Positions 6,861-62,020 of a DNA stretch of 64,000 nt are shown here, piece after piece (within the stretch, counting starts at the first letter, position 1; each line of letters begins with the position of its first letter). This DNA comes from Patescibacteria group bacterium. Its GTDB lineage: Bacteria; Patescibacteriota; Patescibacteriia; UBA9570. The DNA lies in contig JBAZWO010000001.1 of NCBI GenBank assembly GCA_041660305.1, positions 290,268-354,267 on the forward strand. The letters are read 5' to 3'. The position numbers were made by a program, and so were the translations under genes. The notes under the pieces were generated by a model that worked only from the letters and a program-made list of their open reading frames with translations, was not told where the DNA came from and ran no database searches.

Positions 6861-6911
6861 TTTTTTAATTTTTATTTTAAATTATAATAATTATATCATT
6901 TTTTTTAAATT

Positions 6912-6939: not shown

Positions 6940-6945
6940 ATAACT

Positions 6946-20700: not shown

Positions 20701-20725
20701 TATCTCAAAGGTTTTGGGATAAAAA

Positions 20726-21100: not shown

Positions 21101-21108
21101 GTGCGTTT

Positions 21109-21193
21109 GACCTCCCTCCCCAGCCCTCCCTCCTGCCAAGAGGGAGGGAGTTAAACCCCCTGCCTTGCAGGGAAGGGGGTAGGGGGAAGGGTC
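21109..21193. repeat. GC-rich palindromic element, locus R7 (inverted partner of R6)
   Basis: 85 bp, GACCTCCCTCCCCAGCC...GGGGGAAGGGTC. The ligA TGA stop (21192-21194) overlaps its last bases. Confidence 0.9.
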
Positions 21194-27374: not shown

Positions 27375-27415
27375 GTCTTGAACTATGATTTTTGTGATTA
27401 TTGAATCACTGAGAA
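27375..27415. promoter_or_regulatory. Conserved ~42-bp element, copy 1 (abuts the pilA -35)
   Basis: GTCTTGAACTATGATTTTTGTGATTATTGAATCACTGAGAA. The 16-bp core is identical in all three copies. Confidence 0.6.
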
Positions 27416-27449: not shown

Positions 27450-28124
27450 TTAATTTAATTTTAATATCCGCTTAGTCACAACTGGTATTTCTTTTTGAAA
27501 ATATTTTTTTACTTGCGCCCAGGTAGTATCAAAAAATATTTCAGGCATTGGATCAATTTCCGCATCTGCAAAATACATTAAACTTTTCATAATATGATGA
27601 TAATCATGTGCCACCGTAGGATATTGCCTTGCTACACGTAAAATAATATCAAACAGGGATTCACAATGATGTAAATACCAATACAAATCAAAAAAATCAC
27701 GTTTTTTACCACGTTGGCTAATAGCTATTATTTTCATTACCGCAATATCACGCTTATCCACTATTGCCACATTACCAAAGTACAAAACTGGTTGCTCTGG
27801 AATAAAAAATGGATAGGCAATAAAACTAATTTTAGCATTATATAAACGTCCGTACACCGTTCCTTCTTCATTTACATCAGTATGCCAGATAGTTCCAGGA
27901 AAGTGTTTTAATAACACCGTTGTACGAAAATCTTTTTTTGGTAGAAAAAAATCAAGATCAAGTGATAAACGATGACCTACTTGTAATGTTAAGGCTGTGC
28001 CACCAGCTAAATACCAATCAGTGCCTTTTAACCAAGACTGGTTTGATAAATACTCCAAAGCCAGTCTGGTGTTTTTTGGAATATTATTAAGATGCCAGAT
28101 TATGTTTTGCTTAGTGCTAGCCAT
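27450..28124 (-). CDS. Nucleotidyltransferase AbiEii/AbiGii-family toxin (type IV TA)
   Basis: 224 aa with the hallmark LAGGTALTLQVGHRLSLDLDFF. Confidence 0.8.
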   Translation of the reverse strand: MASTKQNIIWHLNNIPKNTRLALEYLSNQSWLKGTDWYLAGGTALTLQVGHRLSLDLDFFLPKKDFRTTVLLKHFPGTIWHTDVNEEGTVYGRLYNAKISFIAYPFFIPEQPVLYFGNVAIVDKRDIAVMKIIAISQRGKKRDFFDLYWYLHHCESLFDIILRVARQYPTVAHDYHHIMKSLMYFADAEIDPMPEIFFDTTWAQVKKYFQKEIPVVTKRILKLN

Positions 28125-28351
28125 AACAAACGAGTTTTGTCTCGTAAAGATCGTGATTGTTTAGCGACATCGACCAACAGAGTATGAGAGTAAGTCTGCC
28201 ACATCCAGCGAGCTTCTTTATCTGTACCAAAATCCATAATCCGTTCAATAACGTAACGAGCATGTTTTTTTGGGTTAATAGTTTTTGGATCCACATCCCA
28301 AAACAAAGTTTTCCGCCGTGGCATTTTTTGTAACATGTTAGAAGATTTCAT
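28100..28351 (-). CDS. Small upstream partner of the AbiEii toxin (candidate antitoxin)
   Basis: 83 aa, overlapping the toxin gene by 25 nt. It contains FWDVDPKTINPKKHARYVIERIMDFG. I could recognise no wHTH, so the role is inferred from position. Confidence 0.45.
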   Translation of the reverse strand: MKSSNMLQKMPRRKTLFWDVDPKTINPKKHARYVIERIMDFGTDKEARWMWQTYSHTLLVDVAKQSRSLRDKTRLLWLALSKT

Positions 28352-28386: not shown

Positions 28387-28421
28387 GTCTTCATTTAATC
28401 AAACTAATCATAGTTCAAGAC
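28381..28421. promoter_or_regulatory. Conserved ~42-bp element, copy 2 (inverted orientation)
   Basis: Its reverse complement reads GTCTTGAACTATGATTAGTTTGATTAAATGAAGACTATGAA. It lies 6 bp downstream of the pilC stop. Confidence 0.6.
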
Positions 28422-34436: not shown

Positions 34437-35558
34437 TTATACTATTTCACGCATCGCTAAACCAATGGCCACCGATAAACGTGGGCCAATTTCGCTAAGC
34501 ACAGATTTTAATTCTACCGGATACACCACTCTAGCCCAAGGATCACCAATTACTACTTTCATATTTAAAACTTGCGACAAATATTGTGGTAAATTAGGTA
34601 ACCAAGCTGAGCCACCAGTTAGAATTATTTTTTCAATTTGATAACTGCTCTGATTATGATAAAGATTCAACACATACCGAATTTCGTTCACTACTGAGGC
34701 TACCATAAATTCAATGCGTTTGGGAATTTGGTTGCCCGTAGCCGTAGACGGAATTAAACCAAAATCACGTTTAAATTGCTCGGCTCTATCTACATCTACA
34801 TTTAAACTAGTAGCCACGGTTTTAGTAATAGCCTGCCCGCCTAAATCGATGCTACGATTTACTACTGGCACGCTAGCTACTACTACCGAAATATTGGTAG
34901 TAGCCGAACCAATATCCACCATCATCATTGGCATTCGATCGTGTCCTACTAATGACCGTTCCATGGCAAAAGCTTCGGTTTCCAAACTAATCAAATTCAT
35001 TCCGGCCATCTTAAAAATATCAATGTAATGATTCACTAAATCAGCTGGTGCGGCCGTTAATAATATTTTGTGATACTTGCGTGGTTGACTAGTAATTTGT
35101 GCCTGATTATTACTATCATTAGCACTAACATTAGCCGCTGGCATAGCCCCAGCCATAAAACCTGGCTCGTTATCTAATAATTTCCAATCCAAGATCATTT
35201 TCTCAATCGGCATTGGTACAAATTTTTTCGCTTCCCATTGCACCGCGGCGTCCAATTCCCGCTTGTTCATTTCTGGTAACGTAATAACCGAAGAAAACAC
35301 CGTGTAACTAGGCAAGGCCGCTACCACATTATTAGTAGTAACTTTGGCTTTATCAGCCACTTGTTTAATAGTGGCCACAATGTTTTGTTTGGCTTCCGGA
35401 CTGTTAAATTTCAATAACTTGCTCGGCCGCTCAATATAACCATAGGTAACCAATTTTGGCCGCCCTTTATCATTGTGCAATTCCGCCATTTTTAAAGACG
35501 AACTGCCAATGTCGATACCAATGTAATTATCCGATAAATGTAATGCCATACTGCGCAT
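34437..35558 (-). CDS. pilM: Type IV pilus assembly protein PilM (actin-like ATPase fold)
   Basis: 373 aa with the IGIDIGSSSLKMAEL phosphate-1 motif and PilM-like length. Confidence 0.85.
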   Translation of the reverse strand: MRSMALHLSDNYIGIDIGSSSLKMAELHNDKGRPKLVTYGYIERPSKLLKFNSPEAKQNIVATIKQVADKAKVTTNNVVAALPSYTVFSSVITLPEMNKRELDAAVQWEAKKFVPMPIEKMILDWKLLDNEPGFMAGAMPAANVSANDSNNQAQITSQPRKYHKILLTAAPADLVNHYIDIFKMAGMNLISLETEAFAMERSLVGHDRMPMMMVDIGSATTNISVVVASVPVVNRSIDLGGQAITKTVATSLNVDVDRAEQFKRDFGLIPSTATGNQIPKRIEFMVASVVNEIRYVLNLYHNQSSYQIEKIILTGGSAWLPNLPQYLSQVLNMKVVIGDPWARVVYPVELKSVLSEIGPRLSVAIGLAMREIV

Positions 35559-35593: not shown

Positions 35594-38500
35594 TTATTTT
35601 ATCGTTGGCAAACTTTTGCTTAAATCTTCCAGGCCAGGCGGTGGATTGGTAATTAAGCGGGTATCATAAATAATACGTTCAGAAGCTTTATTACCAGATT
35701 CTGTGCCGATATTTTTTCTACCAAAATTAAATTTACGCGCTAATACCAAACCTTTAATTTCCAGCTGCAACGTACTAGGGTCGGTAATAAACGTAGCAAT
35801 ACTATCATCCGTTGGATTATCTAACGCAATATATGCTCCAGCTAATTTTGTTACCGCTGGCTTAATAGTAATTTTACCAGTAGCAATCCAAGCTACGGAA
35901 GCAATATTATAAATATTGCTAATTGACGTATCATAATAAAACGAATTAGCCGCTATTTCTAAATCACCTTCTACTACAACAGTACCGGATCCTAACTTAT
36001 CTGGTGTATTAGCAAAAATTAAATTATTATTAATGATTAACTTATTGTTTATAGCATCTGTTTTACAATAATACACTTTACCGCCTAATGATATATGATT
36101 TATAGATAATGTATTTAAGGCATTCATTAATTCAATACAAGAATTATAAGCCGTGCCCTGTTGCTTGGCTTGTTCAATTAATTCACTTACATGTAAATCG
36201 CCAATACTGCCTCGATATACTTGTGTACTGTTATTAGTTGGTACATTAACATTTCCATACGCCGGATTTTTGGCATAGTCCGTAGCGTTTTTTTCAGCAA
36301 ACTCACTAGTAAACCCAGTGATGGTATCATTGGCTTGAATTAAATAAGTGGCATTATATTGTCCAACCGGAGGTGTAGTATTAGCCGTAAAGCCTTTTTT
36401 AGCATATACATCGCCATATAAAGTCTGTAACCAAGCTTTGGTAGCACTACTAACATCGGCATCAAAGCGCATCCAGCCTAAACCGCTACCAGTGATAAAA
36501 TTATTAGCACCATCTGTGCCATTGCCATTCCAACTAAATCCAGAAAACTGCCGAGCTGTGGTGTCATAGTATACTCCATAATTTCCGGTAACATTACCTG
36601 AACTATCTTTAACATCGCCACGCAATTTTACCCAACCCCAATCATTAACGTTATACAAATCTTTACCGTGATTACTAATACTTGTCCACCGTGCCCAACC
36701 ACTCACCACACCCGTACGTTCGTCCCAATAGGCTGTTTTGTCTACAAAATCAGGCTTACTAGTTAAATCTGGCTGAAATTCTAACCAACCTAATGTTTTA
36801 GCTTTATCAACAAACACGTCTGATACCGCATAATTCCCGACCCAAGCGAAACCTTTTATTAAACAATTCTCCGCGCAATCATCACCAATTTCTAATTGCA
36901 CACCGTATTTTGGCGTATCAGTTGCCACTGAATTTTCTGAAGCAAAACTAATAAACCCTACTCCACCACATTTACCTGGCAATAAAACACTTGGTACACA
37001 AGTTTCCTCCGCTGCATTGCCAATCCAGCCATAACCTTGGGCATTAGTATATAATGGAAATTGAATTACCTGCCAATACTGGTTGTTTAAATCGCTTTCA
37101 CCGTTTTCATCACTCCGCCAAAACGAAGCGGTAATTTTATCCTTGGCTGTTAATTGCGTTAACCAACGATTACGCGGAAACTCTTGTCCAGTACCTTTGG
37201 TAGTATTAGTAACAAACGCGAATGCTTTGTTGGTAGTATCTACCACTTTTGGTAAAGTAATTTCTTGATCATAGCGTTCGCCATCCGATTCAGTAGAGTT
37301 ATTTTCAACCACATTTTGCTGCGTAATTACAGTATTTTCCGGAAACGCAATCGCATAATAATTAATAGTGTTTACATATTCACCAGCTTCACTACGAGAA
37401 AACTCGGCTGTATTACCACCATCTGTGTTATTACAACCAACTGCTGCCGCGGCTATGCTATCTCCAGTAGTATTATAGGAACAATACAGCCATATCCTGT
37501 CTTGGCTGGCATTTAAACTATCAACGGTGGCAGAAACATCGCTAAAATTTGCTGGAATGGCTGTTTCGCCAGCTAGTATTTTTACATTCGAGGATTCAGA
37601 AAACGTTACTACTTCATAACGCGCCAAAGTGGTAGCTGTACTACCTCCACGAGCCACCTCTACAGTTTTATTATTTTTTAATTTACCAGTTACTAAACCA
37701 TTTTTTTCGGTAACTTGCGTATCGGCCGTACGAGAAGATACTAAAACCAGTGAGCGCGCGCTATCAACTATTGGAGTTAAATCGTTTGAATCGGCAAATG
37801 ATTCTTCATTATTAATAGTAATTTCACCGCGCTGCACCGAAAATTCATCTAGTTTACATTCCACTAACGTATATGATATTTGTGCCGTACCGGCCGTACC
37901 AATACGTTCAAACACTAATTCGGAAGCACTGGAAATATAACCACTCACCAAATGATCTGCAGCATTAACCACGTTACTATCTCCCGTACTGTTCACTAAC
38001 AAAAGCGCTTTGGTAATATTGGTTAACGACTTATCTAAAGTAACAGTCACACTGGTTTTATTTTCTCCGGTATCTGTGATGGTAGTTTCTCCTTGTTCTA
38101 CGCGGCACTGCGACCAATCAATTAATGGGACACTATTATTGGTAGTCTCTGCCGAACCGGTACCTTTTAGAGCAACACTTTGCAATTTTGGAGTAACCGC
38201 TGTATCACTAGTATTAAAAAATAATTTATATTGAATATATTGTTGTTTCATGTTTGCTAAAGCATAATAAGGCGCTCCATCAGCATTACTATCTAAATCA
38301 TTATAATAAGTACTGTCTCCATTGGGTCCAGTAAAGTTTTCTGTATCACAATTCACATCATCACACACTCGTAATTGCACGCCAAATTGCACTGCCCCCC
38401 TCATATACATATTTTCCACCTCCGTTGCAGACAATGCTCGCTTGAACACCGCCACTTCATCCATGTCGCCATAATATTGATTCTTGCCGGAAGTACCAAA

Positions 38501-40585
38501 GGCTTGCGTAGTGCCGAAACCAAAACGATCACCTTGTGCACCAGTAGGAACAGTAGTGGTATAAACTGACTGGCCGTTTTTATATAGTGTTACTTGGCCA
38601 CCACTATAGCTAATAGCCATGTGCTGCCATGTATCATAGGTAACTGGCACATTGGTATTGATAAAATAAGGCTGTGTCCAACTACCGTTACTAATGTAAT
38701 AATTATTTTGATAAATTTGAATGTTTCTACCATTGCTGTTATCACTTAACACAAAATGATAATTTGTGTCGTAATCTGCAACTGTAGCTGGTTTAGTTGG
38801 CTTAATCCAAACAGACCAAGTGGTGTTAGGCATAACACTATAGTTTAAATTAAGCCTTGGCGAGCTATAATCGTTACTAATATATTGATTAGTCTTTGTA
38901 AACGACGCTCCTTTAGCAAATACTGTATTAATATTTAATGTTGGGCAATTGTAAGACCCTCCCTGTTCAACGCCCAATACAGTTAGTGTGTGAATACCAC
39001 AGGTAAATTTATTGTTATCGGTAGTGCTAGCTTTATTAACAAATAAATTTGTGTTTTCATCGAGATGCCACAAGCCCACGATATCGTTCATGGACAGATT
39101 GTTGCTATAGCCTGTTTCTGAAGCACCAAAATCTGGGAGTGGTTTTTGGTAGGCCTGATAAGGTTGCCAACCTAAATAGTCCCATACCGTATTACTGTAA
39201 CCAGAATCTTTTATAGAAGAGGTAAACGTACCAGCTGTAACATATTTTCCTAAGCCATCATCAGCTAATTGCAAAAACGCTGTGCCGCCTGTACTAGCAA
39301 TGTCCGTATCATCATAATCTCCTCCGTCGTTAAAATTATTAGCCGCCGAATCTTCAATATCTGTAGAAGTAGTAATAGTAGCTCCTTGCACAGTAACATT
39401 AGATAATACCGGTGTAACACCAGAATCACTGGTAATAAAATCGGCTTTATATTGAATGTATTGGCTGGTATCCATTAATAAATTTTGAAACACTGGTGCC
39501 TCGTTAGTAGTATTTCCAGCATCAGTAAAAAAAGATCCACTAGTACCATCTGGCCCCATATAATTTCCTTGGCTACAAGTAGCATCGTTACATGCCCGTA
39601 ACTGAAATTTTATATCCGCCACTCCCCGCGCATACATATTTTCAATCTCCGCTTGCTCTAGCGTCCGATTAAACACCGCCACTTCGTCCATTTGCCCATG
39701 ATATTGATTGGCAGTAATGTTTGCGCCAGTATTCCCTCCCAACGTAAATTGGGTTCCTTGTGCCGTAATAGCCGCAACCGTTGTAGAAAATTGTAGTATC
39801 CCGTTTTTATAAAAACTAAGTTTTTTATTATCAAATACAACTACTAAATGCTGCCACTTATCATAATCTACTGTCACTGGTGTATATATAAAATTCCAAT
39901 TACCATAATAAAAAGAATAATAAAGTGATTGGGACGTGGCAGTACTATTTGGCCTATTTATTTGAATACCACGACCAGCATTAGCATCACTAATTACATA
40001 GTGTTGCTGACCATCATTGTTACTTGCGGTCGGTTTAATCCAAACTGACCAAGTGGTAGTAGGTAAAGTACTAGGATTTAATGGAGTGGTTATGTACTGT
40101 CGCTGCGCGTTAAAATTAACGCTAGTACCAAATTTACCAGTCGGTTCAAGCGCTGGACAATAAGTATTGTATGTTGTCGCGCAAGTGCCATTATTTAACC
40201 CCACTAGATTAGCCGTATCTTTAAAAGGGGCTGTAGCTTCATCTAAATGCCACAAGCCCACAATACCGTTCATGGACAGATTGTTGCTATAGCCTGTTTC
40301 TGAAGCACCAAAATCTGGGAGTGGTTTTTGGTAGGCTTGTTGTGGTTGCCAACTAAACTTACTCCAATCGGTTACGCCGCCAGAATTTTTAATATTTGAA
40401 GTATAGGTTCCTGATAACAATGTTTTATTATTCAGTTCTACCGCGTTAGCAACATTTAATTTAGTGTTACTAGTATAAGCACCGGCATCAAATTCGGCTT
40501 TTGTATCATCGGTAGCTAAATACGCCAAACTTAACCTTGGCAACAACACAAACACTAGCCCAAACATGATAATTCTTGCTTTCAT
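35594..40585 (-). CDS. Giant secreted protein with two LamG/ConA-like lectin domains; first gene of the pilus locus
   Basis: 1663 aa with signal peptide MKARIIMFGLVFVLLPRLSLA. It carries a duplicated roughly 394-aa unit. Each unit ends in the LamG_3-type motif W.H....YDG..L.LY.NG...QY.G.MDEVAVF.R.L...E.ENMY. Confidence 0.7.
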   Translation of the reverse strand: MKARIIMFGLVFVLLPRLSLAYLATDDTKAEFDAGAYTSNTKLNVANAVELNNKTLLSGTYTSNIKNSGGVTDWSKFSWQPQQAYQKPLPDFGASETGYSNNLSMNGIVGLWHLDEATAPFKDTANLVGLNNGTCATTYNTYCPALEPTGKFGTSVNFNAQRQYITTPLNPSTLPTTTWSVWIKPTASNNDGQQHYVISDANAGRGIQINRPNSTATSQSLYYSFYYGNWNFIYTPVTVDYDKWQHLVVVFDNKKLSFYKNGILQFSTTVAAITAQGTQFTLGGNTGANITANQYHGQMDEVAVFNRTLEQAEIENMYARGVADIKFQLRACNDATCSQGNYMGPDGTSGSFFTDAGNTTNEAPVFQNLLMDTSQYIQYKADFITSDSGVTPVLSNVTVQGATITTSTDIEDSAANNFNDGGDYDDTDIASTGGTAFLQLADDGLGKYVTAGTFTSSIKDSGYSNTVWDYLGWQPYQAYQKPLPDFGASETGYSNNLSMNDIVGLWHLDENTNLFVNKASTTDNNKFTCGIHTLTVLGVEQGGSYNCPTLNINTVFAKGASFTKTNQYISNDYSSPRLNLNYSVMPNTTWSVWIKPTKPATVADYDTNYHFVLSDNSNGRNIQIYQNNYYISNGSWTQPYFINTNVPVTYDTWQHMAISYSGGQVTLYKNGQSVYTTTVPTGAQGDRFGFGTTQAFGTSGKNQYYGDMDEVAVFKRALSATEVENMYMRGAVQFGVQLRVCDDVNCDTENFTGPNGDSTYYNDLDSNADGAPYYALANMKQQYIQYKLFFNTSDTAVTPKLQSVALKGTGSAETTNNSVPLIDWSQCRVEQGETTITDTGENKTSVTVTLDKSLTNITKALLLVNSTGDSNVVNAADHLVSGYISSASELVFERIGTAGTAQISYTLVECKLDEFSVQRGEITINNEESFADSNDLTPIVDSARSLVLVSSRTADTQVTEKNGLVTGKLKNNKTVEVARGGSTATTLARYEVVTFSESSNVKILAGETAIPANFSDVSATVDSLNASQDRIWLYCSYNTTGDSIAAAAVGCNNTDGGNTAEFSRSEAGEYVNTINYYAIAFPENTVITQQNVVENNSTESDGERYDQEITLPKVVDTTNKAFAFVTNTTKGTGQEFPRNRWLTQLTAKDKITASFWRSDENGESDLNNQYWQVIQFPLYTNAQGYGWIGNAAEETCVPSVLLPGKCGGVGFISFASENSVATDTPKYGVQLEIGDDCAENCLIKGFAWVGNYAVSDVFVDKAKTLGWLEFQPDLTSKPDFVDKTAYWDERTGVVSGWARWTSISNHGKDLYNVNDWGWVKLRGDVKDSSGNVTGNYGVYYDTTARQFSGFSWNGNGTDGANNFITGSGLGWMRFDADVSSATKAWLQTLYGDVYAKKGFTANTTPPVGQYNATYLIQANDTITGFTSEFAEKNATDYAKNPAYGNVNVPTNNSTQVYRGSIGDLHVSELIEQAKQQGTAYNSCIELMNALNTLSINHISLGGKVYYCKTDAINNKLIINNNLIFANTPDKLGSGTVVVEGDLEIAANSFYYDTSISNIYNIASVAWIATGKITIKPAVTKLAGAYIALDNPTDDSIATFITDPSTLQLEIKGLVLARKFNFGRKNIGTESGNKASERIIYDTRLITNPPPGLEDLSKSLPTIK
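39065..39154. repeat. 90-bp near-identical patch, copy B (inside the giant ORF)
   Basis: 88/90 identical to 40247-40336. It encodes AYQKPLPDFGASETGYSNNLSMNDIVGLWH. Confidence 0.9.
40247..40336. repeat. 90-bp near-identical patch, copy A (inside the giant ORF)
   Basis: See copy B. The offset is 1182 bp (394 codons). Confidence 0.9.
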
Positions 40586-40592
40586 TGCAGAA

Positions 40593-40621
40593 ATTATACC
40601 ATTTTTTGAATGGTTTTGCCA
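40593..40621 (-). promoter_or_regulatory. Pilus-operon promoter candidate with extended -10 (TGGTATAAT), ATG 7 nt downstream (leaderless candidate)
   Basis: The minus strand reads TGGCAA-N17-TATAAT-TTCTGCA-ATG, with TATAAT at 40598-40593 and TGG at 40601-40599. Confidence 0.5.
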
Positions 40622-40633
40622 GACCAGAAACGG

Positions 40634-40675
40634 GTCTTGAACTATGATTTGTCTGATTATGTGATAGACTATGAA
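40634..40675. promoter_or_regulatory. Conserved ~42-bp element, copy 3 (upstream of the pilus-operon promoter)
   Basis: GTCTTGAACTATGATTTGTCTGATTATGTGATAGACTATGAA. It has the same orientation as copy 1 relative to the downstream gene. Confidence 0.6.
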
Positions 40676-40852
40676 ATTATAACATTTACGCTAACATGCA
40701 CATGATTTACATACAAGCGTGAATAGTCGACGGCGCTGAAATATTTATTTTTACCAATCCGCTGCACAAAAACTGGTTGTGCACTGGATTGGTGAGGAGG
40801 CGCAGGCAGGACACAAGATAAATTGTGCACGCGCCTCCCCTATCGTCTGCGA

Positions 40853-41602
40853 CTAGCCGTCCTGGCCATTGCAGTTTTGATCGATGTCGTCACCGTAAGG
40901 ATCGGGGGCGCCGGAGTAAATAGTTGGATCATTGTCATTGCAATCTGCTGCTGGCGACATAGGATCACACGACCCGCTGTAACCATCACCGTCACCATCG
41001 GGATCATCTTTGATCCCATTGCAGTTATTGTCCATACCATTACACATTTCTGGTGCCCCTGGATATATGTTCCGGTTATTGTCATTGCAGTCCTGGTTAT
41101 TTGTTACATAACCATATGGAGTGCTACAAGCTTGTGTAAAAACTTCAGGACTACCATAACTGTCATCATCAGCATCCTGGTAGTATGTGTTCTCCACATC
41201 TTCATCCACCTGACCATCACAATCATTATCCATAATGTCACAGCTCTCCGCAGCACCAGGATAAGAGTTAGTATTAGTATCGTCACAGTCATCTGTAGCA
41301 GTTACCCATCCTGGCAGCGGAGCACATGCCTCTCCTACTGCCACGGAAGTTCCGTATCCGTCGTTGTCCGCGTCCGGGTAATAAATGGTCTTCACACTAT
41401 CGTCAACCACGCCATCACAGTCATCATCCATCTCGTTGCAGCTTTCGGCCGCACCAGGATAGACCTGGTCATTCTGGTCATTGCAGTCGCCGTCAGCGAC
41501 CGAATAACCATCGACATCGACATCTTCAGTATCGGGACAGCCCTCTGCCCCAACGAACACAAACGCCGCCAAAAGAGGCAGCGCCTTCAGCCAGTTTCTC
41601 AT
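40853..41602 (-). CDS. Secreted Cys/Asp-rich repeat protein (MopE-type putative metal-binding motif, 4 repeats)
   Basis: The repeat is D.DGY....DC(N/D)D.....YPGA.E.C(N/D).(M/I)D(N/D)(D/N)C(D/N)G..D. The signal is MRNWLKALPLLAAFVFVGAEGC. The ATG at 41602 is preferred over the track's 41623 because AAGGAGG lies 5 nt upstream. Confidence 0.7.
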   Translation of the reverse strand: MRNWLKALPLLAAFVFVGAEGCPDTEDVDVDGYSVADGDCNDQNDQVYPGAAESCNEMDDDCDGVVDDSVKTIYYPDADNDGYGTSVAVGEACAPLPGWVTATDDCDDTNTNSYPGAAESCDIMDNDCDGQVDEDVENTYYQDADDDSYGSPEVFTQACSTPYGYVTNNQDCNDNNRNIYPGAPEMCNGMDNNCNGIKDDPDGDGDGYSGSCDPMSPAADCNDNDPTIYSGAPDPYGDDIDQNCNGQDG

Positions 41603-41914
41603 GGCTTCCTCCTTAAAAAACATTATCTCTATGTAAACAAGTATCCTGAAAAAATTATCAGGTTACTTGGAATTTTTAAAGAACAAAAAAATCCCCTGCT
41701 GTATATATAAAAGGATTAACTAAAATAATACTAGGGTATGTTGGCGACGGCGCTGCTAAAAAAACATCATTTTAGCTGTTGTAGTTAATAACCTAACGCC
41801 TGGGGATAAAATTTATACCGACGGCGCTAAAAATGTCTGGAACTATTCAATAAATCCACTAGGAACCTCTTCAAGAGATTCATACTGGATTTAGAGGCGG
41901 CGGGTTGAAATATA

Positions 41915-42667
41915 TTATTTCAAACACCGGCGCCTCCTTGTTATGGTGAGAAAAAGGGCGGTAAGAACCACCGCCAGACCCAGGGGCGGTCTGGCGGCCG
42001 ACTGCGTCGTAGAGCACGAGCAGCCGGGAACGGGGGGCGGCGAGACGAACTGATCGTCGTCGCCCGTGGTGTCGTCATCCCCCGCAGTGGCCGGGGGGGT
42101 GGGAGAAACGTCCGGAGTCGGCGAGACCTCCGGCGTGGGGGTGGGCGAGTCCCCCGTGGCATCGTCGTCGCCCGTCGAGTCGTCATCCCCGCCTTCAGGG
42201 GTCGGGGAGACGGGATCCGGAGTCGGCGTGGCCGTGGGCTCCGGGGTGGGGGGAGGCGAGTCCCCCGTGGCATCGTCATCGCCCGTGGCGTCATCGTCAC
42301 CCGCCACCGGTGTGGCTGGGGGGGTGGGAGAAACGTCCGGAGTCGGCGAGACCTCCGGCGTGGGGGTCGGCTCCGGAGTCGGACTGACCTCCGGGATGGG
42401 GGTGGAGATACAGTCCCCCGCGACCGACCCCTCGTCGGTCAGACCATCACAGTCGTTGTCTATACTGTCGCAAACTTCGGGAGCTCCCGGATATGTGTCC
42501 GGGTCGTCATCCCGACAGTCCCCAGTTGCACAACTAGGGTAGTCTGCCGAACACGACGACCCGTAGGCTCCCCATCCGTCGGCATCCTCATCGGTCCAAA
42601 CGGCCGACGCGGACGGGACGACGTATAGTGCTCCGAGAATCGTAAGGATCATGAACAAGTGCTTCAT
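41915..42667 (-). CDS. Secreted Pro/Thr-rich repeat protein with one MopE-type motif and a Cys-containing C-terminal sorting-signal-like tail
   Basis: 250 aa with signal MKHLFMILTILGALYVVPSASA and a tandem repeat EVSPTPDVSPTPPAT...GDDDxTGDDD. The C-terminus reads GCSCS, then a hydrophobic helix, then RRRRCLK. An AAGGAGGG SD is present. Confidence 0.65.
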   Translation of the reverse strand: MKHLFMILTILGALYVVPSASAVWTDEDADGWGAYGSSCSADYPSCATGDCRDDDPDTYPGAPEVCDSIDNDCDGLTDEGSVAGDCISTPIPEVSPTPEPTPTPEVSPTPDVSPTPPATPVAGDDDATGDDDATGDSPPPTPEPTATPTPDPVSPTPEGGDDDSTGDDDATGDSPTPTPEVSPTPDVSPTPPATAGDDDTTGDDDQFVSPPPVPGCSCSTTQSAARPPLGLAVVLTALFLTITRRRRCLK

Positions 42668-42759
42668 GGTCCCTCCTTATCTTTGCCAGCCCTCTTCACC
42701 GTATCCTGCACCATGCAAGAATTCAGATCAGAAAGCTGGACTTGTTGAAACAGAACATA

Positions 42760-42807
42760 CTACCTCTATCACCCCAGCCCCCTTTCCCCTAAACAGGGGA
42801 AAGGGGG
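42760..42807. repeat. GC-rich modular palindromic element, locus R9
   Basis: CTACCTCTATCACCCCAG then the imperfect hairpin CCCCCTTTCCCC-TAAA-CAGGGGAAAGGGGG (arms unequal by one base, so the stem has one unpaired/mismatched position). It sits at the right edge of island 2. Confidence 0.8.
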
Positions 42808-43040
42808 AATAAAAAAATAGAGCTTTTATATTCCATGTCTTCAATAATACCTCGTAATATAATGCTATGTTTTCAATGTGCAAAACTTACATGTATATCA
42901 TATTTCAACAAATTTGTCAATACCAAAAAAATGTTAGACTCCTCCAATTTTAATTATACGGACAAACCGCTTTTAAACGCAAGCAAAAACGTATGTTTTT
43001 TACACAGTTTACGCACTATATCGGAAACCACTGGCCGATA

Positions 43041-45893
43041 TCAATATTGATTTAAAGTCTGACAACTGCCTGAACTGGACGGAACACTTAATGATCCTCC
43101 ATTATTACTCACCTTCACGCAATATACATTACCATTATCATCCATTATATTAATACCTTTATACGCCCACGGTTGACCATAACTGCCACTGCCTTGGCCG
43201 GAAAAAAATCGGCGCAAACTAGTACCAGTTGAATACCAAATATAAGTACCGTCAAATTCAATATCACCGATAATAGTACCATTAGCAAGAAACTTATTTT
43301 CTGAACTAACATTGGAATCACTTGGTAATAAACGTTGCAAATAATTTTCAGTATTAAACCAAATATAACTGCCGTCAAATACTAGGCCATTTGGTTTACC
43401 GTAAATTGTATTGATTTCTTGAATATCAATATTATCAAACACATTAACCTTATTTAAACTACCATTGGAACCACCAGAACCATTGTTTTGCATGGCTACC
43501 CATAAATAATGGCCATCAAACGTCATACTTTTGGCTGTTTGTTGCTTTGTGGCAGAAGTATTGTATGGTAACGTGTAAGTCAGTTGAACACTGCTAGTAA
43601 ATGGGGTATTTTTAAAGTCAGTTACATTCATCTTGATTATTTTATCATTAGTAGAAGACATGTCTACTAAAGCATATAAATCTGTTCCATTTAAAATAAA
43701 TTTTAAAATACTACCCCCCGCTGAAATATTAGAATCTGTATAAGCTATTAAATTACTGGCATTTGTACTATAAATTCTCCCATCAGATGTACCAATAACA
43801 TAATAACCATCTTTAACATATAAGCCAGTTGTAACAATTTTATTAAGTAATGAGCTAGGAGAAGATGCTGCTACACTAGATTGTACACCTGATTTTGATA
43901 ACCAGTTATATTTAACCACACTACCAGTACTACTCCAAAACATAACTCCCTGTACACCTTGTACACCAGCTGCTATTAAATTACTAGTTGTTCCTATATT
44001 AGAAAAATTATAGTCTTTTATTAATTGTAAATCTAATGGATAAAAACGAGATAATGTAGCATTACTACCAGAATTAGCTAACACAAATAATTCTGAACTA
44101 TCAAAGAAAATAGATTTTGTGCCTGTAAGTGTTTTATCAATACCAAGTGTTTTAGAATCCAAAACACTTGTATCTAATACTGAATATTTTTTTGTTTCAA
44201 TTAACCTATCGGCTACAATCTGCCCCTCAAATTTCCCCGCATATGTTTTACCTTTGCTATACAATCCAATTCCACCTTCCGATTTTGCTTCCACGCCATA
44301 ACTAGTACCACCAGAACTGCCGTATACGCCAGCTTTAGGATTGTTTACTGGCGCGTAACCCCATATTCCATAACCATCCTTTGATGCTTCACCATATACA
44401 CCTGCTTTTTGAGCATTACCACCAGTAACTTTTCCTACTATTCCATAGCCACCTACACCGCTAGTAGAATCATAACCTGTCCCTTCTGCATATAAACCGT
44501 TAGCATATAAATCATTGCCTTTAAAATAACCACCAAAACCACCACGACCATTAGCAATACCATACACACCATAATTACTTCCTATACTATCAACTCCAAT
44601 GGTTCCCGATGCAGAAATCCCAACCGTATTACCTTGCGCTATTACAGCTGATCCTTGCCAACTAATTGCTTCTACCCCTGTATAACCAAAAAAATGTCCA
44701 CCTACTGATTTTGTATTATCTTGATTAGCTTCCCCTTGCACTCCATAAGAATCACCGTCTGCACTATTAGATACTCCGTACACCCCTACTCCAGCATAGC
44801 TAGAATCAGCTTGTCCTTTTACAGCTTTTTGATAATCACCTATTGTAGTTCCTAATACTCCAGGATTGCCATTACCATGCACACCAGGAACACCAGAACC
44901 ATACACTCCAGCAACCATGCCAATAGCAACACCTTGTACACCATAACTGTCTCCAGTACCTTCACCATAAACAGCTGCTTTATCAGTAGAATCACTTCTA
45001 CCATAAACACCATAATTAGTATTGCTAAATCCTACTATTCCTATACCACTGTCTGATTCACCAAACACTCCCATACCACTTGACGTACTTTTACCATATA
45101 CACCAGCCGCGCCAAAACCAGATCCACCGGCTTCGCCATATACACCATAATTCCAATCCGTACCGGAATTTTTTCCATATAAACCAGCTATATTTCCGTA
45201 ACCAACTATTCCATATCGAGCACCACTACCTTCAATACCAATACCATTATCGTCTGAATTATTACCAATAATTACACCACCAGTTGAATTTTTTGCATTC
45301 ACTTGCAAAACACCACTCATGCTATCCCCTGTTGTATTCACCCAAATATCCGAAATACCAACCGCGTTACTAGGTAAAGTACCATATACTTCTGCATTAT
45401 TTTTTTCCGCTTGTGTACTACTGTCATTAGCCCATTTATTTAAATCCACTGCCGGCGTACTACCACCTCGTACAAACTTAGATGACGTTAAATCATCATT
45501 AACCATACCATCGCTAACTGAATTGCCGGGCAATATTAAATACCAATTATAATCATAATCACCGCTGTTGCTGTAAGTAACATAATAAGGTTCGTCTGGA
45601 TAGGCGCTAACAGCGTATGGATAAGAATATAGCGTGTTAATATCAATTGTTGTGTTTTTGTAAGGCAATAAACCAAAACCACTTTGCGCGGTAATACTCC
45701 CCAACTTCGTCTGCCTCGCCTCCGAAACATTTAATGGCGCCGAAATATTGCAGCCCTCGGCACCTGGATCCACTGCCGGATCACAGGTTGGCTCCTGCCA
45801 AGCGGCTAAAACACCACGCTGTACACCAAACAAAATTACTAGTGTACTAATCGCAAATATTAATGTAATTTTTTTCCAAATCATTAACCGCAT
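43041..45893 (-). CDS. Large secreted protein: Gly/Tyr-rich short-repeat solenoid region plus C-terminal FDGxY(I/L)W repeats
   Basis: 950 aa with an N-terminal anchor/signal. About 400 aa consist of (G/S)xYG(V/I)xG-type repeats. The C-terminus has FDGHYLW, FDGSYIW and FDGTYIW, which look like propeller blades. The promoter geometry favours a start at Met4 (45884). Confidence 0.6.
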   Translation of the reverse strand: MRLMIWKKITLIFAISTLVILFGVQRGVLAAWQEPTCDPAVDPGAEGCNISAPLNVSEARQTKLGSITAQSGFGLLPYKNTTIDINTLYSYPYAVSAYPDEPYYVTYSNSGDYDYNWYLILPGNSVSDGMVNDDLTSSKFVRGGSTPAVDLNKWANDSSTQAEKNNAEVYGTLPSNAVGISDIWVNTTGDSMSGVLQVNAKNSTGGVIIGNNSDDNGIGIEGSGARYGIVGYGNIAGLYGKNSGTDWNYGVYGEAGGSGFGAAGVYGKSTSSGMGVFGESDSGIGIVGFSNTNYGVYGRSDSTDKAAVYGEGTGDSYGVQGVAIGMVAGVYGSGVPGVHGNGNPGVLGTTIGDYQKAVKGQADSSYAGVGVYGVSNSADGDSYGVQGEANQDNTKSVGGHFFGYTGVEAISWQGSAVIAQGNTVGISASGTIGVDSIGSNYGVYGIANGRGGFGGYFKGNDLYANGLYAEGTGYDSTSGVGGYGIVGKVTGGNAQKAGVYGEASKDGYGIWGYAPVNNPKAGVYGSSGGTSYGVEAKSEGGIGLYSKGKTYAGKFEGQIVADRLIETKKYSVLDTSVLDSKTLGIDKTLTGTKSIFFDSSELFVLANSGSNATLSRFYPLDLQLIKDYNFSNIGTTSNLIAAGVQGVQGVMFWSSTGSVVKYNWLSKSGVQSSVAASSPSSLLNKIVTTGLYVKDGYYVIGTSDGRIYSTNASNLIAYTDSNISAGGSILKFILNGTDLYALVDMSSTNDKIIKMNVTDFKNTPFTSSVQLTYTLPYNTSATKQQTAKSMTFDGHYLWVAMQNNGSGGSNGSLNKVNVFDNIDIQEINTIYGKPNGLVFDGSYIWFNTENYLQRLLPSDSNVSSENKFLANGTIIGDIEFDGTYIWYSTGTSLRRFFSGQGSGSYGQPWAYKGINIMDDNGNVYCVKVSNNGGSLSVPSSSGSCQTLNQY

Positions 45894-47587: not shown

Positions 47588-48394
47588 ATGCCTCGGACTA
47601 CCACCCACCAAACCATGTTGCCCTTTAGTACATTATTACGTAACGCTCTGTTGTTATTTGAAGAAAAAATCATGCTGTTTGTGGCAGTTACAGCTATACC
47701 ATTATTCGTGAGTTATGCTATTTATTGGTTATTACTAAATAAAATCATTAACACCTTAGCTACTGTTCATTCTGTAGAGCAACTGCAAGCCATGTTTTCT
47801 TTAAATAGTTCTACTACTTATTTAAGTAGCGCTGCTTTTTTAGTAATCGCTTTAATAAATATCTTTGGTTTAATAGCCAATCCAATTGTTGCCTCGTACA
47901 ATAAACATATCACTTGGAAAACCATTATTCCAGAATCCGCTAAATTCTTTTTTAGCTACATTGGTTTAACCATTTTAATTAGTTTAAGTTTGTTTGGCAT
48001 ATTAATAGTTAGTTATCTGGTTTGTACTATTATTGCTAGCATCTTTGGTTATATTAATCATAGTTATTTAAATACTGTGTTCTTTTTACTTATTCCATTA
48101 GTGCCAAATGTACTAGTGTTATTTAGTGGCATTTTCTTTGTGTTTGCGCCTTTTGCGTTAGTAACCAATCAAGCTGGCGCCTGGGCGGCTTTATTAACTA
48201 GTTGGCGCCTAGTAAAACAACATTTTTTTGGCATAGTGATACGTTTAGGATTAATATTAATAATACTAATATTACTTACTACGCTTTTGCAATTTATTCC
48301 CTTGGTTGGCTGGTCATTAGCTATTCTTATTAGCAATATTACTTTAACTGTATTCAATTATACCTTGTATTTGCATCTCACTACCAATGAATAA
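47588..48394 (+). CDS. Polytopic membrane protein, unknown function
   Basis: 268 aa with about 6 hydrophobic helices and no recognisable motif. Confidence 0.5.
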   Translation: MPRTTTHQTMLPFSTLLRNALLLFEEKIMLFVAVTAIPLFVSYAIYWLLLNKIINTLATVHSVEQLQAMFSLNSSTTYLSSAAFLVIALINIFGLIANPIVASYNKHITWKTIIPESAKFFFSYIGLTILISLSLFGILIVSYLVCTIIASIFGYINHSYLNTVFFLLIPLVPNVLVLFSGIFFVFAPFALVTNQAGAWAALLTSWRLVKQHFFGIVIRLGLILIILILLTTLLQFIPLVGWSLAILISNITLTVFNYTLYLHLTTNE

Positions 48395-52963: not shown

Positions 52964-54391
52964 ATGGAACAACCTAATAATCCACTAGCCAATTCTGAAC
53001 AAACCAATCCAATTGTAGACCATCTGGAACAAGACATGGCTAATTTATTAAATAAAGATGGCTTGAATATTCGCTTGCCAAAAGCAGCCATGTTAAGCGT
53101 GCTTAAAAAAGCTTTAGGCCAGGTTAAGTTAACGCCAGAAAATATTACTAAATTAGAAAATGCTCACGTGCAACTAGCTGTTATTAATAAAATAGCCTTA
53201 GCTGATTTAGCTAATCGAGTGGCTAATGGCATGGGCGAATCATTAGATGAAGCGCCACCAGCTGGCGTAACCGAAGCCGTGCAGGCTTTGCCAAATCAAT
53301 TTAATTCTTTTGGCAACATGCCTGATAATCTACCAACCATGGCTATGCCTGCTACTTCAAGACCGCCTACAAATTTAGCTCACCAAACTCAACCAAGGCC
53401 AAGTAATGATATGGCTATGCCCGGCGAAGGCGTTGGTGATGATGAACCAACTCCTAATAAACCGGCTGCCGGCCAACAAGCAACCACACAACCAACTCAA
53501 CCAGCTAACGCCCCGGCCAATTTCCCCGGCTTAAACGCTCCGTCTGCTCAACCGGTAATGCCTACCGCGCAACCTGGCGCTGATAGCAGCTTCCCTTATC
53601 AAGGCACGCCTGAACAGCAAAAACAAGCCGAACCGCCTTTTGCTCAAAATGCATTAGCTAATCAAGACGCACAGCCTACTCCTCCACCAACTGCTGGATC
53701 ACCCACTCCAGCTGGTGCCACTAATACTCCACCTCCTGGTACTCCGCCACCGGCTGCCGGTGCACCTGGCACGCCTAATAATCAACCGGCCGGCGCCACT
53801 TCTAATGCCGCTAATCCTGCAACACAACCACAGGCCCAAACCGGCGGCCAACCTACTGCTGGAACAACCCCTAATAATAACACAGCTACTCAAAAAAAAA
53901 CCAAGCAAGTTGGCCCAATAGGTAACCTATTCAATCGTATACATAGACGCGGAAAAATAAATGCAGTCAATACAAAAATTAAGGATACACAAAATAAATT
54001 AAAAGATGTATCATTTCAGTTTGCTACAGAATACTTTGTTATTGTTTGTTTTAAAGAATTACTAGATTTTTTAATGACACTATTAGATGCTACCGGCTTC
54101 ATGATTATTATTTGCACGGCTATTAGTGCCGCCTGTGGCTCTGTAATCGGCTTAATTATTTGGTGGCAAACTAAAACTTGGAAAAAAGAAGTATTTAATA
54201 ATAAAATAGCGCTCCAAGCTATAGTAGCTTTTCTTTTAGAGTTAATTCCTATTATACAATTACTACCATTAAATATTGCTATGGCTTACGCCTTAACTAT
54301 TCAAACCGAACGGCGCAAAAAACATCATGAAAATAAATTAGACAAACTACAAAAAGAAAAACATAAGTTAATCAATCAGAAAAAAATATGA
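52964..54391 (+). CDS. Hypothetical Pro/Gln/Ala/Thr-rich protein with C-terminal TM helices
   Basis: 475 aa. A central roughly 200-aa low-complexity region is followed by 2-3 TM helices. The stop overlaps the recG start (ATGA). Confidence 0.45.
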   Translation: MEQPNNPLANSEQTNPIVDHLEQDMANLLNKDGLNIRLPKAAMLSVLKKALGQVKLTPENITKLENAHVQLAVINKIALADLANRVANGMGESLDEAPPAGVTEAVQALPNQFNSFGNMPDNLPTMAMPATSRPPTNLAHQTQPRPSNDMAMPGEGVGDDEPTPNKPAAGQQATTQPTQPANAPANFPGLNAPSAQPVMPTAQPGADSSFPYQGTPEQQKQAEPPFAQNALANQDAQPTPPPTAGSPTPAGATNTPPPGTPPPAAGAPGTPNNQPAGATSNAANPATQPQAQTGGQPTAGTTPNNNTATQKKTKQVGPIGNLFNRIHRRGKINAVNTKIKDTQNKLKDVSFQFATEYFVIVCFKELLDFLMTLLDATGFMIIICTAISAACGSVIGLIIWWQTKTWKKEVFNNKIALQAIVAFLLELIPIIQLLPLNIAMAYALTIQTERRKKHHENKLDKLQKEKHKLINQKKI

Positions 54392-57876: not shown

Positions 57877-58579
57877 CTATGGTTTTAGTTAATTGCTCAA
57901 GAGTTAATGGTTCGCTATACATAGCATCATTTACAAACAACGTATGCCTATTAGTAACACCTAAGGCTTGGCCATTATAATAGGCGTAATTAATCATAGC
58001 TTGATAGCGTTTTTCGTTCACACATGTTTCTAAATCAACACTACTGGCTCCGGCACTAGATAATTTAGTATAATCTAATGCTGTATTCGCTTTAGCTACA
58101 GTAATAATATTTTGTGTACTATTCCAAAACTTATCTTGTTCATCTAAACAATGAATCGCTTGTGTTAAATTCGTAGCTGTATCCGTATAATCTTTCCATA
58201 CGAGCATTAATTGTGAATATTGCTTGATTAAATCATTTGCCCAAGTTAAGTATTGCTGCGTAGTAGCATCATTAATATCACCATAAATAATTAAAAATAC
58301 TTCTGCTTGTACATTGCCTAATTTTGGATCCAAGTCCGAAACAAATACTTTAGTTTTGCGATTGATTTGTTGTTGATTAGTAGGTACTGTGGTAATTAAT
58401 GGATCTGGTAATATAACCTTATTTTTGTTGGTAATTGTGTTTGTACTATTAATCTTATTGCCTAATAATAGAAAATCCCTATTTTTAATAGCTGGTAACA
58501 TAATAATTATCACAAAAAAAGTACACAAAATAATTCCAGCTAAAATTAAAAGAATATAAGGAATGATACGCTTTAACAT
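57857..58579 (-). CDS. Membrane-anchored DsbA-like thioredoxin-fold protein lacking the CxxC active site
   Basis: 240 aa. It has the DsbA-family pattern (AEVFLIIYGD..., QDKFW, GVTNRHTLFVND), but the CxxC position reads NDAT and the cis-Pro loop reads RHT. Confidence 0.45.
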   Translation of the reverse strand: MLKRIIPYILLILAGIILCTFFVIIIMLPAIKNRDFLLLGNKINSTNTITNKNKVILPDPLITTVPTNQQQINRKTKVFVSDLDPKLGNVQAEVFLIIYGDINDATTQQYLTWANDLIKQYSQLMLVWKDYTDTATNLTQAIHCLDEQDKFWNSTQNIITVAKANTALDYTKLSSAGASSVDLETCVNEKRYQAMINYAYYNGQALGVTNRHTLFVNDAMYSEPLTLEQLTKTIDAVISK

Positions 58580-58623
58580 ATAAGTACTATTATAGTATTA
58601 TTCTATATTAAGATCAAACTTTG

Positions 58624-60057: not shown

Positions 60058-60064
60058 GTGGAAC

Positions 60065-61348: not shown

Positions 61349-61354
61349 AGAAAA

Positions 61355-61960: not shown

Positions 61961-61975
61961 ATTGATTGATTTATT

Positions 61976-62019
61976 TCTCCCCCTCTCCAGAAAGGAGAGG
62001 GGGCTGGGGGGTGAGGTCG
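61976..62019. repeat. GC-rich modular palindromic element, locus R12
   Basis: CCCCCTCTCC-AGAAA-GGAGAGGGGG then CTGGGGGGTGAGGTCG. It lies between the VirB4 stop and the next gene start. Confidence 0.8.
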
Positions 62020-62020
62020 A

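Follow-up and report, generated by a model that had tools for sequence, protein, structure and literature searches.

Horizontally acquired surface-protein genes and an apparently orphan MYXO-CTERM-type tail in a variable slot of a Kerfeldbacteria-like Patescibacterium

The MYXO-CTERM domain is a protein-sorting signal recognized by its C-terminal position, an invariant cysteine (often two, in the form GCGC), a helix free of charged residues and of proline, and a cluster of arginines (Haft 2023, doi 10.1101/2023.06.07.544157). True systems count 6–43 clients per genome in the Myxococcales, and this tail type is otherwise restricted to the Myxococcota and Bradymonadales (same reference). The signal is cleaved by myxosortases of the CPBP family, such as MrtX (Guo, Haft & Wall 2025, PMC11980579; doi 10.1101/2023.06.07.544157); MrtC and MrtP are further myxosortases, and NF040914 is their core model. 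A second protein type relevant here carries the Cys/Asp repeat of Pfam family PF11617 (Cu-binding_MopE, "putative metal-binding motif"). For the methanotroph proteins MopE and CorA, two reports describe a copper site made of two histidines and a kynurenine (PMC3423442; PMC3912023). Both elements were found together in a stretch of 64,000 nucleotides (hereafter the window) from a Patescibacteria group bacterium, contig JBAZWO010000001.1 of assembly GCA_041660305.1. The genes in question, gene 1 (40853–41602) and gene 2 (41915–42667), are adjacent on the minus strand and form a GC-rich island. Both encode proteins of known types and were genuinely acquired by horizontal transfer, the slot that received them being variable; as a gene transfer, the case is clean but fairly ordinary. 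The complete reading, with two acquired genes in a variable slot, a Myxococcota-like donor for gene 2 and a tail that is now an orphan anchor, is the one that we consider fairly probable.

The host is a Kerfeldbacteria-like Patescibacterium of the candidate phyla radiation (CPR), whose PilM (34437–35558) matches Kerfeldbacteria and Patescibacteria metagenome-assembled genomes (MAGs) at 84–46% identity. The comparison relied on 80 related loci totalling 1.38 Mb. In the relatives a conserved order runs through ClpB, a 268-aa membrane protein, an M48 peptidase, LemA, a gene similar to that of a 950-aa protein in the window, the large gene upstream of pilM, and then PilM to PilB. The two genes that flank the slot abut or overlap in five relatives (L007, L008, L010, L015 and L017). 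In the window, 2455 bp (40586–43040, minus strand) separate the stop of the 950-aa gene from the start of a 1663-aa gene, the local counterpart of the pilM-upstream gene. Since the site is empty across relatives with 74–62% identity in PilM, parsimony favours an insertion. No homologue of similar composition was seen at the syntenic site in those relatives whose loci reach it.

The compositionally foreign core of the insert extends from approximately 40700 to 42770. Gene 1 (249 aa) has a G+C content of 0.496 and a G+C content at third codon positions (GC3) of 0.47. Gene 2 (250 aa) reaches 0.663 and 0.73, respectively, with a peak G+C of 0.73 in 300-nt windows, in a host genome of about 38% G+C. 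The 43 host open reading frames (ORFs) in the rest of the window show a GC3 of 0.297 +/- 0.051, with a maximum of 0.44, which places gene 2 at a z-score of 8.4 and gene 1 at 3.4. In gene 2, the codon GAC accounts for 68% of aspartates (15% in the host) and CCC plus CCG for 90% of prolines (32% in the host). The G+C excess is thus located at synonymous positions, and the Pro/Thr/Gly/Asp-rich amino-acid content does not explain it.

The translation signals point in the same direction. Perfect Shine–Dalgarno (SD) sequences, AAGGAGG, precede gene 1 (41608–41614, minus strand) and gene 2 (42672–42678, minus strand), whereas only one of the 43 host genes possesses this sequence and three of 43 have any 4-mer SD core. 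The position of the first of these sites sets the start of gene 1 at 41602 and not at 41623. In 13 of the 43 host genes a TAnAAT (-10-like) box lies within 25 nt of the start codon, and this suggests that host mRNAs are frequently leaderless or have a short leader. An earlier note, made from the letters of this DNA, had described both ORFs where they are indeed found, their perfect SD sites unlike those of the host, and a line at 42061 with 44 G+C out of 60, a figure reproduced on recount. It had given the two genes about 50% and about 70% G+C; the first value was accurate (49.6%), whereas gene 2 has 66.3% overall and exceeds 70% at its local peak. The foreign origin that it proposed agrees with both the composition and the empty sites of the relatives.

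Gene 2 encodes a protein with a clear modular organization. A signal peptide (42602–42667, minus strand) is followed by a single MopE unit (aa 50–79; 42431–42520), detected as one PF11617 stretch with an E-value of 1.8e-9 and 38.1 bits, the gathering score of this family being 27 bits. Next comes a Pro/Thr-rich stalk of 120 residues (42047–42406) built of EVSPTPDVSPTPPAT-type and GDDDxTGDDD repeats. At the nucleotide level, the gene contains a 68-nt repeat whose two copies (42079–42146 and 42304–42371) are 93% identical, as well as 30-nt repeats coding for GDDD. The MYXO-CTERM-type tail (41918–42031) is composed of GCSCS, the uncharged helix LGLAVVLTALFLTIT, RRRR and three more residues, so that the extreme C-terminus reads VPGCSCSTTQSAARPPLGLAVVLTALFLTITRRRRCLK. 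The helix is 15 residues long and lacks D, E, K, R and P; prolines are present ahead of it. All the traits listed by Haft (2023) are found in this tail. When isolated, the tail scores 23.3–23.5 bits with TIGR03901, the MYXO-CTERM model, for a cut-off of 20, but the whole protein stays under that value with 18.2 bits. Among the sorting-signal models of NCBIfam, only TIGR03901 and its older sibling GC_trans_RRR matched gene 2; PEP-CTERM and the remaining sorting models did not. The earlier note had recognized the single MopE motif, the GDDD repeats and the GCSCS-helix-RRRR terminus, all of which stand. Of the two resemblances that it suggested for the tail, the one to MYXO-CTERM survived the comparison with sorting-signal hidden Markov models and the one to PEP-CTERM was lost.

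The partners expected of such a signal were not encountered. A pattern search of the window and of the 80 related loci disclosed no other protein ending in this way. In agreement with the earlier note, which saw no cognate sorting enzyme nearby, no CPBP or myxosortase gene was detected in the window with PF02517, with NCBIfam or in ORF scans. One protein with seven transmembrane segments (47588–48394) could not be assigned: it matches no Pfam or NCBIfam model and has no EExxxR motif, and it is kept beside the M48 peptidase in relatives without a MYXO-CTERM client. Within the data examined the tail of gene 2 is an orphan signal. Since no sorting protease was found in the window and no second tail in the relatives, it is most likely a plain membrane anchor.

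The same architecture has its native home in high-GC bacteria. One myxobacterial protein, P0004, possesses a signal peptide, two MopE units, GDDD repeats, a CEC (C-x-C) motif, a helix and an RRR tail. Its contig (L086) has 69% G+C, and a neighbouring gene encodes the myxobacterial AgmX/PglI C-terminal domain (NF033768, 95.8 bits for a cut-off of 40) with similarity to GltG. Six metagenome loci with a G+C of 0.55–0.71 (L096, L098, L130, L136, L160 and L162) encode MopE proteins with tails such as GECSCSTNGSS...RRRR, which score 22.5–34.2 bits with TIGR03901. The tail of a seventh, L167, scores 16.2, under the cut-off. The G+C content of gene 2 lies inside the range of these high-GC MopE/MYXO-CTERM loci. 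From architecture, tail type and composition, since there is no close donor sequence, we infer a Myxococcota-like donor with 55–70% G+C, a view toward which we lean only slightly. Scans of viral contigs with both proteins gave weak motif matches only, and thus no evidence for a phage vector.

Two other MopE genes deserve mention. In a different CPR lineage, Candidatus Uhrbacteria (GCA_002791255.1, PFWS01000049.1, L005), a MopE-repeat lipoprotein gene at 10001–11283 has a G+C of 0.53 and a GC3 of 0.57, as compared to a GC3 of 0.17–0.22 in the other genes of that locus. The compositional contrast of the window is thus repeated in a CPR lineage unrelated to this one; the gene is cut off by the end of its contig. 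Separately, a MopE protein with GDDD linkers, P0003, is encoded on a contig of 64% G+C (L087/L088, 10001–11221). It is the only plus-strand gene among small minus-strand genes encoding RtcB, peptide deformylase, dCMP deaminase, RNase H, RNase HII, PTH2, CinA and an ADP-ribosylglycohydrolase, and the region resembles a huge phage or an unusual episome.

Gene 1 encodes a predicted secreted protein with four MopE-type Cys/Asp repeats (41411–41488, 41213–41290, 41015–41092 and 40865–40945, minus strand), to which PF11617 assigns four stretches (E = 3e-40, 136.5 bits). The four copies noticed earlier are therefore of the MopE type. The fourth is degenerate (YSGAPDPYGDDIDQNCNG). An alignment with 31 homologues showed a unit of about 66 aa in which the Cys and Asp columns are invariant; in gene 1 the pattern of the unit is YY.DADxDGYG...AC..P.GYV....DC(D/N)D....YPGA.E.C(D/N)..D(N/D)(D/N)C(D/N)G. 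The N-terminal signal peptide ends with ...FVGAEGC, a sequence that does not form a canonical lipobox. An AlphaFold2 model gave a mean predicted local distance difference test score of 84.5, with values above 90 across residues 30–180. The modules probably bind Ca2+, judging from their DxDxDG-like loops. Because the copper site of MopE/CorA is made of two His and kynurenine, binding of Cu is not assumed for gene 1. Two further assemblies also have this 249-aa product among their gene calls, and an exact-product look-up for a 256-aa version gave no record.

The best database matches of gene 1 are 35–54% identical, most of them 35–50%. Those with a name come from Myxococcota, Bacteroidota (with tails of the type IX secretion system, T9SS), Alphaproteobacteria, Actinobacteria, Desulfobacterales and one CPR Uhrbacteria MAG. 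The repeat is consequently more widely distributed than supposed in the earlier note, which had thought it typical of Myxococcota and other high-GC lineages. The GC3 of gene 1 is a mosaic, with 0.60 for aa 1–80, 0.30–0.40 for aa 81–200 and 0.47–0.70 for the remainder. Because of its moderate G+C and the host-like codons in its middle, gene 1 may have a history that is separate from or older than that of gene 2, or may be a partly overwritten resident gene.

Several observations weigh against the reading as a whole. Over the full length of gene 2, TIGR03901 gives 18.2 bits, under the curated cut-off of 20, and singleton hits outside the Myxococcota have been curated as false positives (Haft 2023, doi 10.1101/2023.06.07.544157). 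The search for a sorting protease covered 64 kb of the genome. No close donor was found, the database matches of gene 1 being at most 54% identical. Two database searches yielded no full-length homologue of gene 2, all matches being limited to aa 20–85; with HMMER, these were thousands of giant multi-repeat MopE proteins and contained no donor candidate. Fold and sequence searches of the PDB with gene 1 produced marginal matches only, none significant: a small module of acyloxyacyl hydrolase, and MopE* (2VOV) over residues 3–52 with E = 0.007. The AT-rich spacers and the three copies of a 10-mer, described below, are not explained by a simple capture of donor DNA. Lastly, the segment 42357–42777, which comprises the leader and the 5' portion of gene 2, is covered by the window assembly alone.

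The slot is also occupied in other genomes. Three relatives with 46–48% G+C carry at the same junction a lipoprotein-like ORF (MF..LLLAC.PATV) with a GC3 of 0.86 (L012, 6714–7223; L013, 3335–3922; L014, 6369–6866). L013 and L014 have in common the 5' flank, about 13 initial codons and the 88 nt that follow the stop (the last of these 95% identical), whereas the bodies of the ORFs cannot be aligned; the pattern looks like a cassette-style replacement. In L058, from another Patescibacteria MAG, a 441-aa ORF on the minus strand (5729–7051) has a GC3 of 0.72 and ends with a type A sorting domain of the T9SS (TIGR04183, 33 bits for a cut-off of 23), a further foreign sorting signal inside a CPR genome. 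The ORF is placed near the pilus locus, some 1.3 kb before the pilM-upstream gene, a position that may or may not coincide with the junction. A second hot spot exists 6.5 kb downstream of pilM, at 8968–9714 in L055 and 17704–18636 in L064. The flanks of these two loci correspond over 340 nt on the upstream side (93% identical) and over about 100 nt on the downstream side, and their cargo consists of different GC-rich ORFs (GC3 of 0.87 and 0.82) encoding seemingly cytoplasmic proteins without any Rfam, Pfam or NCBIfam match. Seven related loci with GC-rich patches gave no match in Rfam, which means that these patches do not correspond to any known RNA gene. Small foreign genes of high G+C are thus a recurrent feature of the lineage, and some of them carry a stranded sorting signal.

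It could be imagined, although we find it rather doubtful, that the pilM-upstream junction of the Kerfeldbacteria is a dedicated cassette slot, which repeatedly captures or exchanges genes that code for exported proteins and are taken from neighbours or hosts of high G+C. Such genes would bring along the ribosome-binding sites of their source and its sorting tails, and the exchange would proceed via short conserved flanks or a core of the CGACGGCGCT type, not by random illegitimate recombination. The MYXO-CTERM tail in the window, the T9SS tail in L058 and the alleles of GC3 0.86 in L012–L014, swapped between a conserved 5' leader and a conserved 3' hairpin flank, are in favour of this idea. 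If it is true, the cargo of the slot could report the DNA sources of these episymbionts.

Another GC-rich island is present elsewhere in the window (island 1, 18655–21194). It contains a 492-aa ORF on the plus strand (19017–20495) with a G+C of 0.51 and a GC3 of 0.56 (z = 5.1), for which no Pfam match was obtained and whose only database match was itself. Its signal peptide ends with ...MVGVQECPTT, resembling the ...FVGAEGCPDT of gene 1. Inverted repeats of 89 nt (18655–18743 and 21106–21194; 97% complementary) bracket this ORF together with a DUF559 endonuclease-like gene on the minus strand (20726–21100). An ENA contig reproduces the whole arrangement.

The spacers of the island under study have peculiar features of their own. 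As reported before, the 10-mer CGACGGCGCT occurs three times in AT-rich spacers of the island; these are its only exact copies in the window, and all are on the plus strand. The first (40728–40737) is located 3' of gene 1, the second (41745–41754) between gene 2 and gene 1, and the third (41819–41828) 3' of gene 2. In the 1.38 Mb of related genomes it is not a motif. Copy 1 lies within a 28-nt imperfect direct repeat (40711–40738 and 41728–41755; 75% identity) which brackets gene 1. Two stem-loops are encoded on the minus strand directly 3' of gene 1 (40753–40838, with arms at 40796–40808/40826–40838 and 40753–40769/40777–40793), a region with a predicted RNA fold of -51.3 kcal/mol (z = -5.9). 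A stem-loop with 21-nt arms is found directly 3' of gene 2 (41851–41893, minus strand; z = -2.4). The three spacers have no extended mutual homology, and none matches the related loci; a host motif of 27–43 nt in the spacer S1 was the only match.

This arrangement raises the question of whether the two genes are separate mobile cassettes, introduced by serial site-specific insertion at a CGACGGCGCT-containing site through an integron-like or other system. Three same-strand exact 10-mers, each 3' of a gene behind stem-loops, would fit, as would the direct repeat bracketing gene 1 and its SD with a spacing of 1017 nt. The different compositions of the two genes are what separate events would predict, and L013 and L014 exchange the ORF body only, with conserved flanks. 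We nevertheless regard this explanation as unlikely, considering that no integrase or recombinase is present among the window ORFs scanned, that no attC-type R''/R' cores were seen in the spacers, that neither the other slots nor the relatives contain the 10-mer, that viral contigs contain no close relatives of the genes, and that the direct repeat is short and only 75% identical. Integron attC sites proper were discarded: inspection of the spacers showed no paired RYYYAAC...GTTRRRY cores, and the window ORFs scanned included no integrase. No tRNA or recombinase was seen near the island in the scanned ORFs and window. Nothing pointed to a diversity-generating retroelement: the repeat scans of the island contained no pair of the variable repeat/template repeat type and no reverse transcriptase was seen among the ORFs scanned.

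The genes could alternatively be native and vertically inherited, their G+C resulting from the amino acids encoded, from the homogenization of repeats or from GC-biased gene conversion in a hot spot of recombination. In favour of this view, the slot is clearly prone to recombination, the GC3 in the middle of gene 1 resembles that of the host, and in the relative L016 a MopE ORF with a host-like GC3 of 0.30 lies at the same position, directly upstream of the orthologous gene. This is the only MopE-type ORF at the syntenic site of the relatives whose loci reach it, and its composition is that of the host. Against vertical inheritance stand the bias at synonymous sites with its sharp edges, SD sites on both genes of a kind hardly used by the host, and the site that is empty in five relatives. 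For gene 2 in addition, no homologue was found in the 80 related loci and the tail type is otherwise confined to Myxococcota and Bradymonadales. We consider a native origin decidedly unlikely and retain acquisition from outside.

A further question is whether the tail of gene 2 might be a working sorting signal, with a CPBP-family protease located elsewhere in the genome cutting behind the Cys motif, in the manner of myxosortase, and leaving a lipid-anchored surface protein. CPBP proteases are widespread. All sequence features of the signal are intact, and the score of the isolated tail exceeds the TIGR03901 cut-off. In a study on Myxococcus, MrtX alone was enough for cleavage in Escherichia coli (PMC11980579). 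The 64 kb around the tail are nevertheless devoid of a CPBP gene, and the tail is a singleton in the window and the 1.38 Mb of relatives, compared with 6–43 clients in true systems. CPR bacteria are not known to possess an outer membrane or a type II secretion system (T2SS). Both are needed for surface delivery in Myxococcus (PMC11980579). A functional signal is thus hardly probable, and a plain anchor is the interpretation that we keep.

Concerning the assembly, the ENA contig L001 corresponds to window 42356–30853 at 99.99% and the Logan contig L002 to 42122–40307 at 100%; both break inside the 68-nt repeat of gene 2 itself. A third contig, L003 (Logan), covers 46676–42778 and ends in a dispersed mini-element, inside its 13-bp hairpin. 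The spacer between genes 1 and 2 and the left junction are therefore reproduced by other assemblies, and the right junction is supported by the present assembly plus conserved synteny. An exact-product look-up with gene 2 gave no record, and a metagenome scan with its N-terminus retrieved motif-level relatives only and no copy of the gene. A false join of a high-GC fragment, for instance via the mini-element at 42772–42810, would account for the right edge coinciding with the dispersed repeat where L003 stops and for the lack of any other assembly over 42357–42777, but it is very unlikely, to the point of being barely credible, since two assemblies join gene 1 to the 1663-aa gene and the 3' half of gene 2 to gene 1, the breaks of other assemblies fall in the repeat that gene 2 itself contains, the genes on both flanks are those that synteny predicts (two precise false joins would be needed, and one junction is independently verified), the spacers of the insert are host-like in composition and carry the host promoter motif, and similar GC-rich genes are embedded in other MAGs from other pipelines.

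The mini-element in question (42772–42810, minus strand), situated between the 950-aa gene and gene 2, is a 13-bp perfect hairpin with GGGGGCTGGGG. It belongs to a family with ten copies in the 64 kb (at 14221, 15722, 15837, 18232, 18721, 21118, 42772, 51047, 55460 and 61999), whereas 0.31 would be expected. Its members are GC-rich and mostly intergenic, and consist of a C-rich/G-rich hairpin followed by GGGG(C/T)TGGGG(G)TGAGGT. Long inverted pairs surround ordinary genes as well, for example at about 14.15–14.26 and 15.70–15.81 kb in the SSB region. Rfam had no match for the mini-element, and one tRNA-Arg was its only match in the window. The mini-element placed by the earlier note at the right edge of the island, as R9, is indeed present there; with ten copies per 64 kb and pairs flanking ordinary genes too, it is an ordinary dispersed host repeat, and mini-elements were dropped as markers of island edges.

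The genes surrounding the insert belong to the host. On the left, the 1663-aa secreted protein (35594–40585, minus strand) is orthologous, from residue 800–820 or so to 1663, to proteins of 530–890 aa encoded upstream of pilM in relatives. Its N-terminal part of about 800 aa (38140–40585) is genome-specific, of host-like composition, and contains two Laminin_G_3 domains, so that the variable region is larger than the two GC-rich genes. The gene includes an internal repeat of 121 nt (39056–39176 and 40238–40357; 92.6% identity). On the right, the 950-aa secreted protein (43041–45893, minus strand) matches no Pfam family; its orthologue in relatives is encoded directly before the pilM-upstream gene. 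A host-type promoter of the 1663-aa gene, CTGGCA-18-TATAAT with a TG extension and preceded by a 27-nt motif, is located inside the insert (40593–40660, minus strand). Both island genes are co-oriented with the pilus-associated surface-protein genes and have promoter-like sites upstream.

The 27-nt motif, GTCTTGAACTATGATTnnTnTGATTA, occurs three times (40634–40660, 27375–27401 and 28392–28421). The first copy precedes the promoter of the 1663-aa gene and the second that of the pilin gene, and the third is inverted. The second and third copies flank an AbiEii toxin-antitoxin insertion (27450–28330) inside the pilus operon. This motif is species-specific, being absent from the 80 relatives, and may be a shared operator.

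We propose the following picture of the two proteins in their present host. Their N-terminal signal peptides would direct both to export by Sec. Gene 2 would then be tethered in the cytoplasmic membrane by its C-terminal helix, with the Arg cluster inside, and the MYXO-CTERM domain would serve as a stop-transfer anchor independent of a sorting protease. Its stalk of 120 residues would project a single Cys/Asp module, rich in disulfides and probably able to bind Ca2+, outward from the cell. Gene 1 would form a secreted or soluble, or else lipid-anchored, string of four Cys/Asp modules. It is plausible that both are accessory adhesins or surface-interaction proteins. A gene for a membrane-anchored DsbA-like thioredoxin is present in the window (57857–58579).

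This thioredoxin gene is part of a cluster resembling a conjugation or type IV secretion system (T4SS) (56503–63925), together with a VirB4/TraG-type ATPase (62021–63925). Two proteins of the cluster combine a T4SS-pilin domain with an SLT or an M15-like peptidase domain (56503–57876 and 58624–60057). A local rise of G+C to 0.56, with an AT skew of 0.22, was also observed at 53401–53900, inside a 475-aa ORF (52964–54391) that matches no Pfam family and whose GC3 is 0.28 overall. This is probably a compositionally biased protein segment and not an island.

The locus documents how complete genes for surface proteins crossed between phyla into the reduced genome of a CPR bacterium, one of them with a sorting signal specific to its donor and now left without the matching enzyme. 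This bears on the diversification of CPR surfaces and on the extent to which C-terminal tags of this kind may serve again as plain anchors. For annotation it calls for caution, as a MYXO-CTERM hit outside the Myxococcota can be a true xenologue instead of a false positive. The recurrent slot is the more interesting lead: the site in L055 and L064 is similar, and such slots could allow the links of the uncultivated Kerfeldbacteria to DNA donors or to hosts to be tested.

Among known systems, integron cassettes and hypervariable slots share with the island its short, single-gene, co-oriented foreign units, the structured 3' element and the short repeated core; as in hypervariable slots, the cargo at one site varies between related genomes. 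The island differs from integron cassettes in lacking an attC consensus, an array and, among the ORFs scanned, an integrase, in having an SD for each gene, and in its host-type promoters. With respect to PF11617 proteins, known from Bacteroidota with T9SS C-termini and from the MopE/CorA of methanotrophs, gene 1 is a typical short member, although its best matches are only 35–54% identical, and its similarity to MopE* (PDB 2VOV) is a weak match over the first 50 residues or so. Gene 2 shares with Myxococcus xanthus TraA and other MYXO-CTERM proteins, which myxosortase MrtX sorts, a tripartite signal on a Cys-rich repeat surface protein (PMC11980579; doi 10.1101/2023.06.07.544157). In the same sources, the M. 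xanthus systems comprise dozens of clients, a CPBP protease and delivery by T2SS across an outer membrane, none of which was seen with gene 2. The closest counterparts of gene 2 are the Myxococcota MopE/MYXO-CTERM proteins (P0004 and those of L098, L130, L160 and L162). Sequence identity to them is restricted to the 30–60-aa MopE unit, a short linker and the tail, and gene 2 departs from them by its long Pro/Thr-rich stalk, its singleton status and the absence of a myxosortase in the window. The order of modules is nonetheless the same, and the tail scores and the range of G+C are similar. The host of gene 2 lies outside the Myxococcota and Bradymonadales, and the known range of MYXO-CTERM fits the donor that we infer instead.

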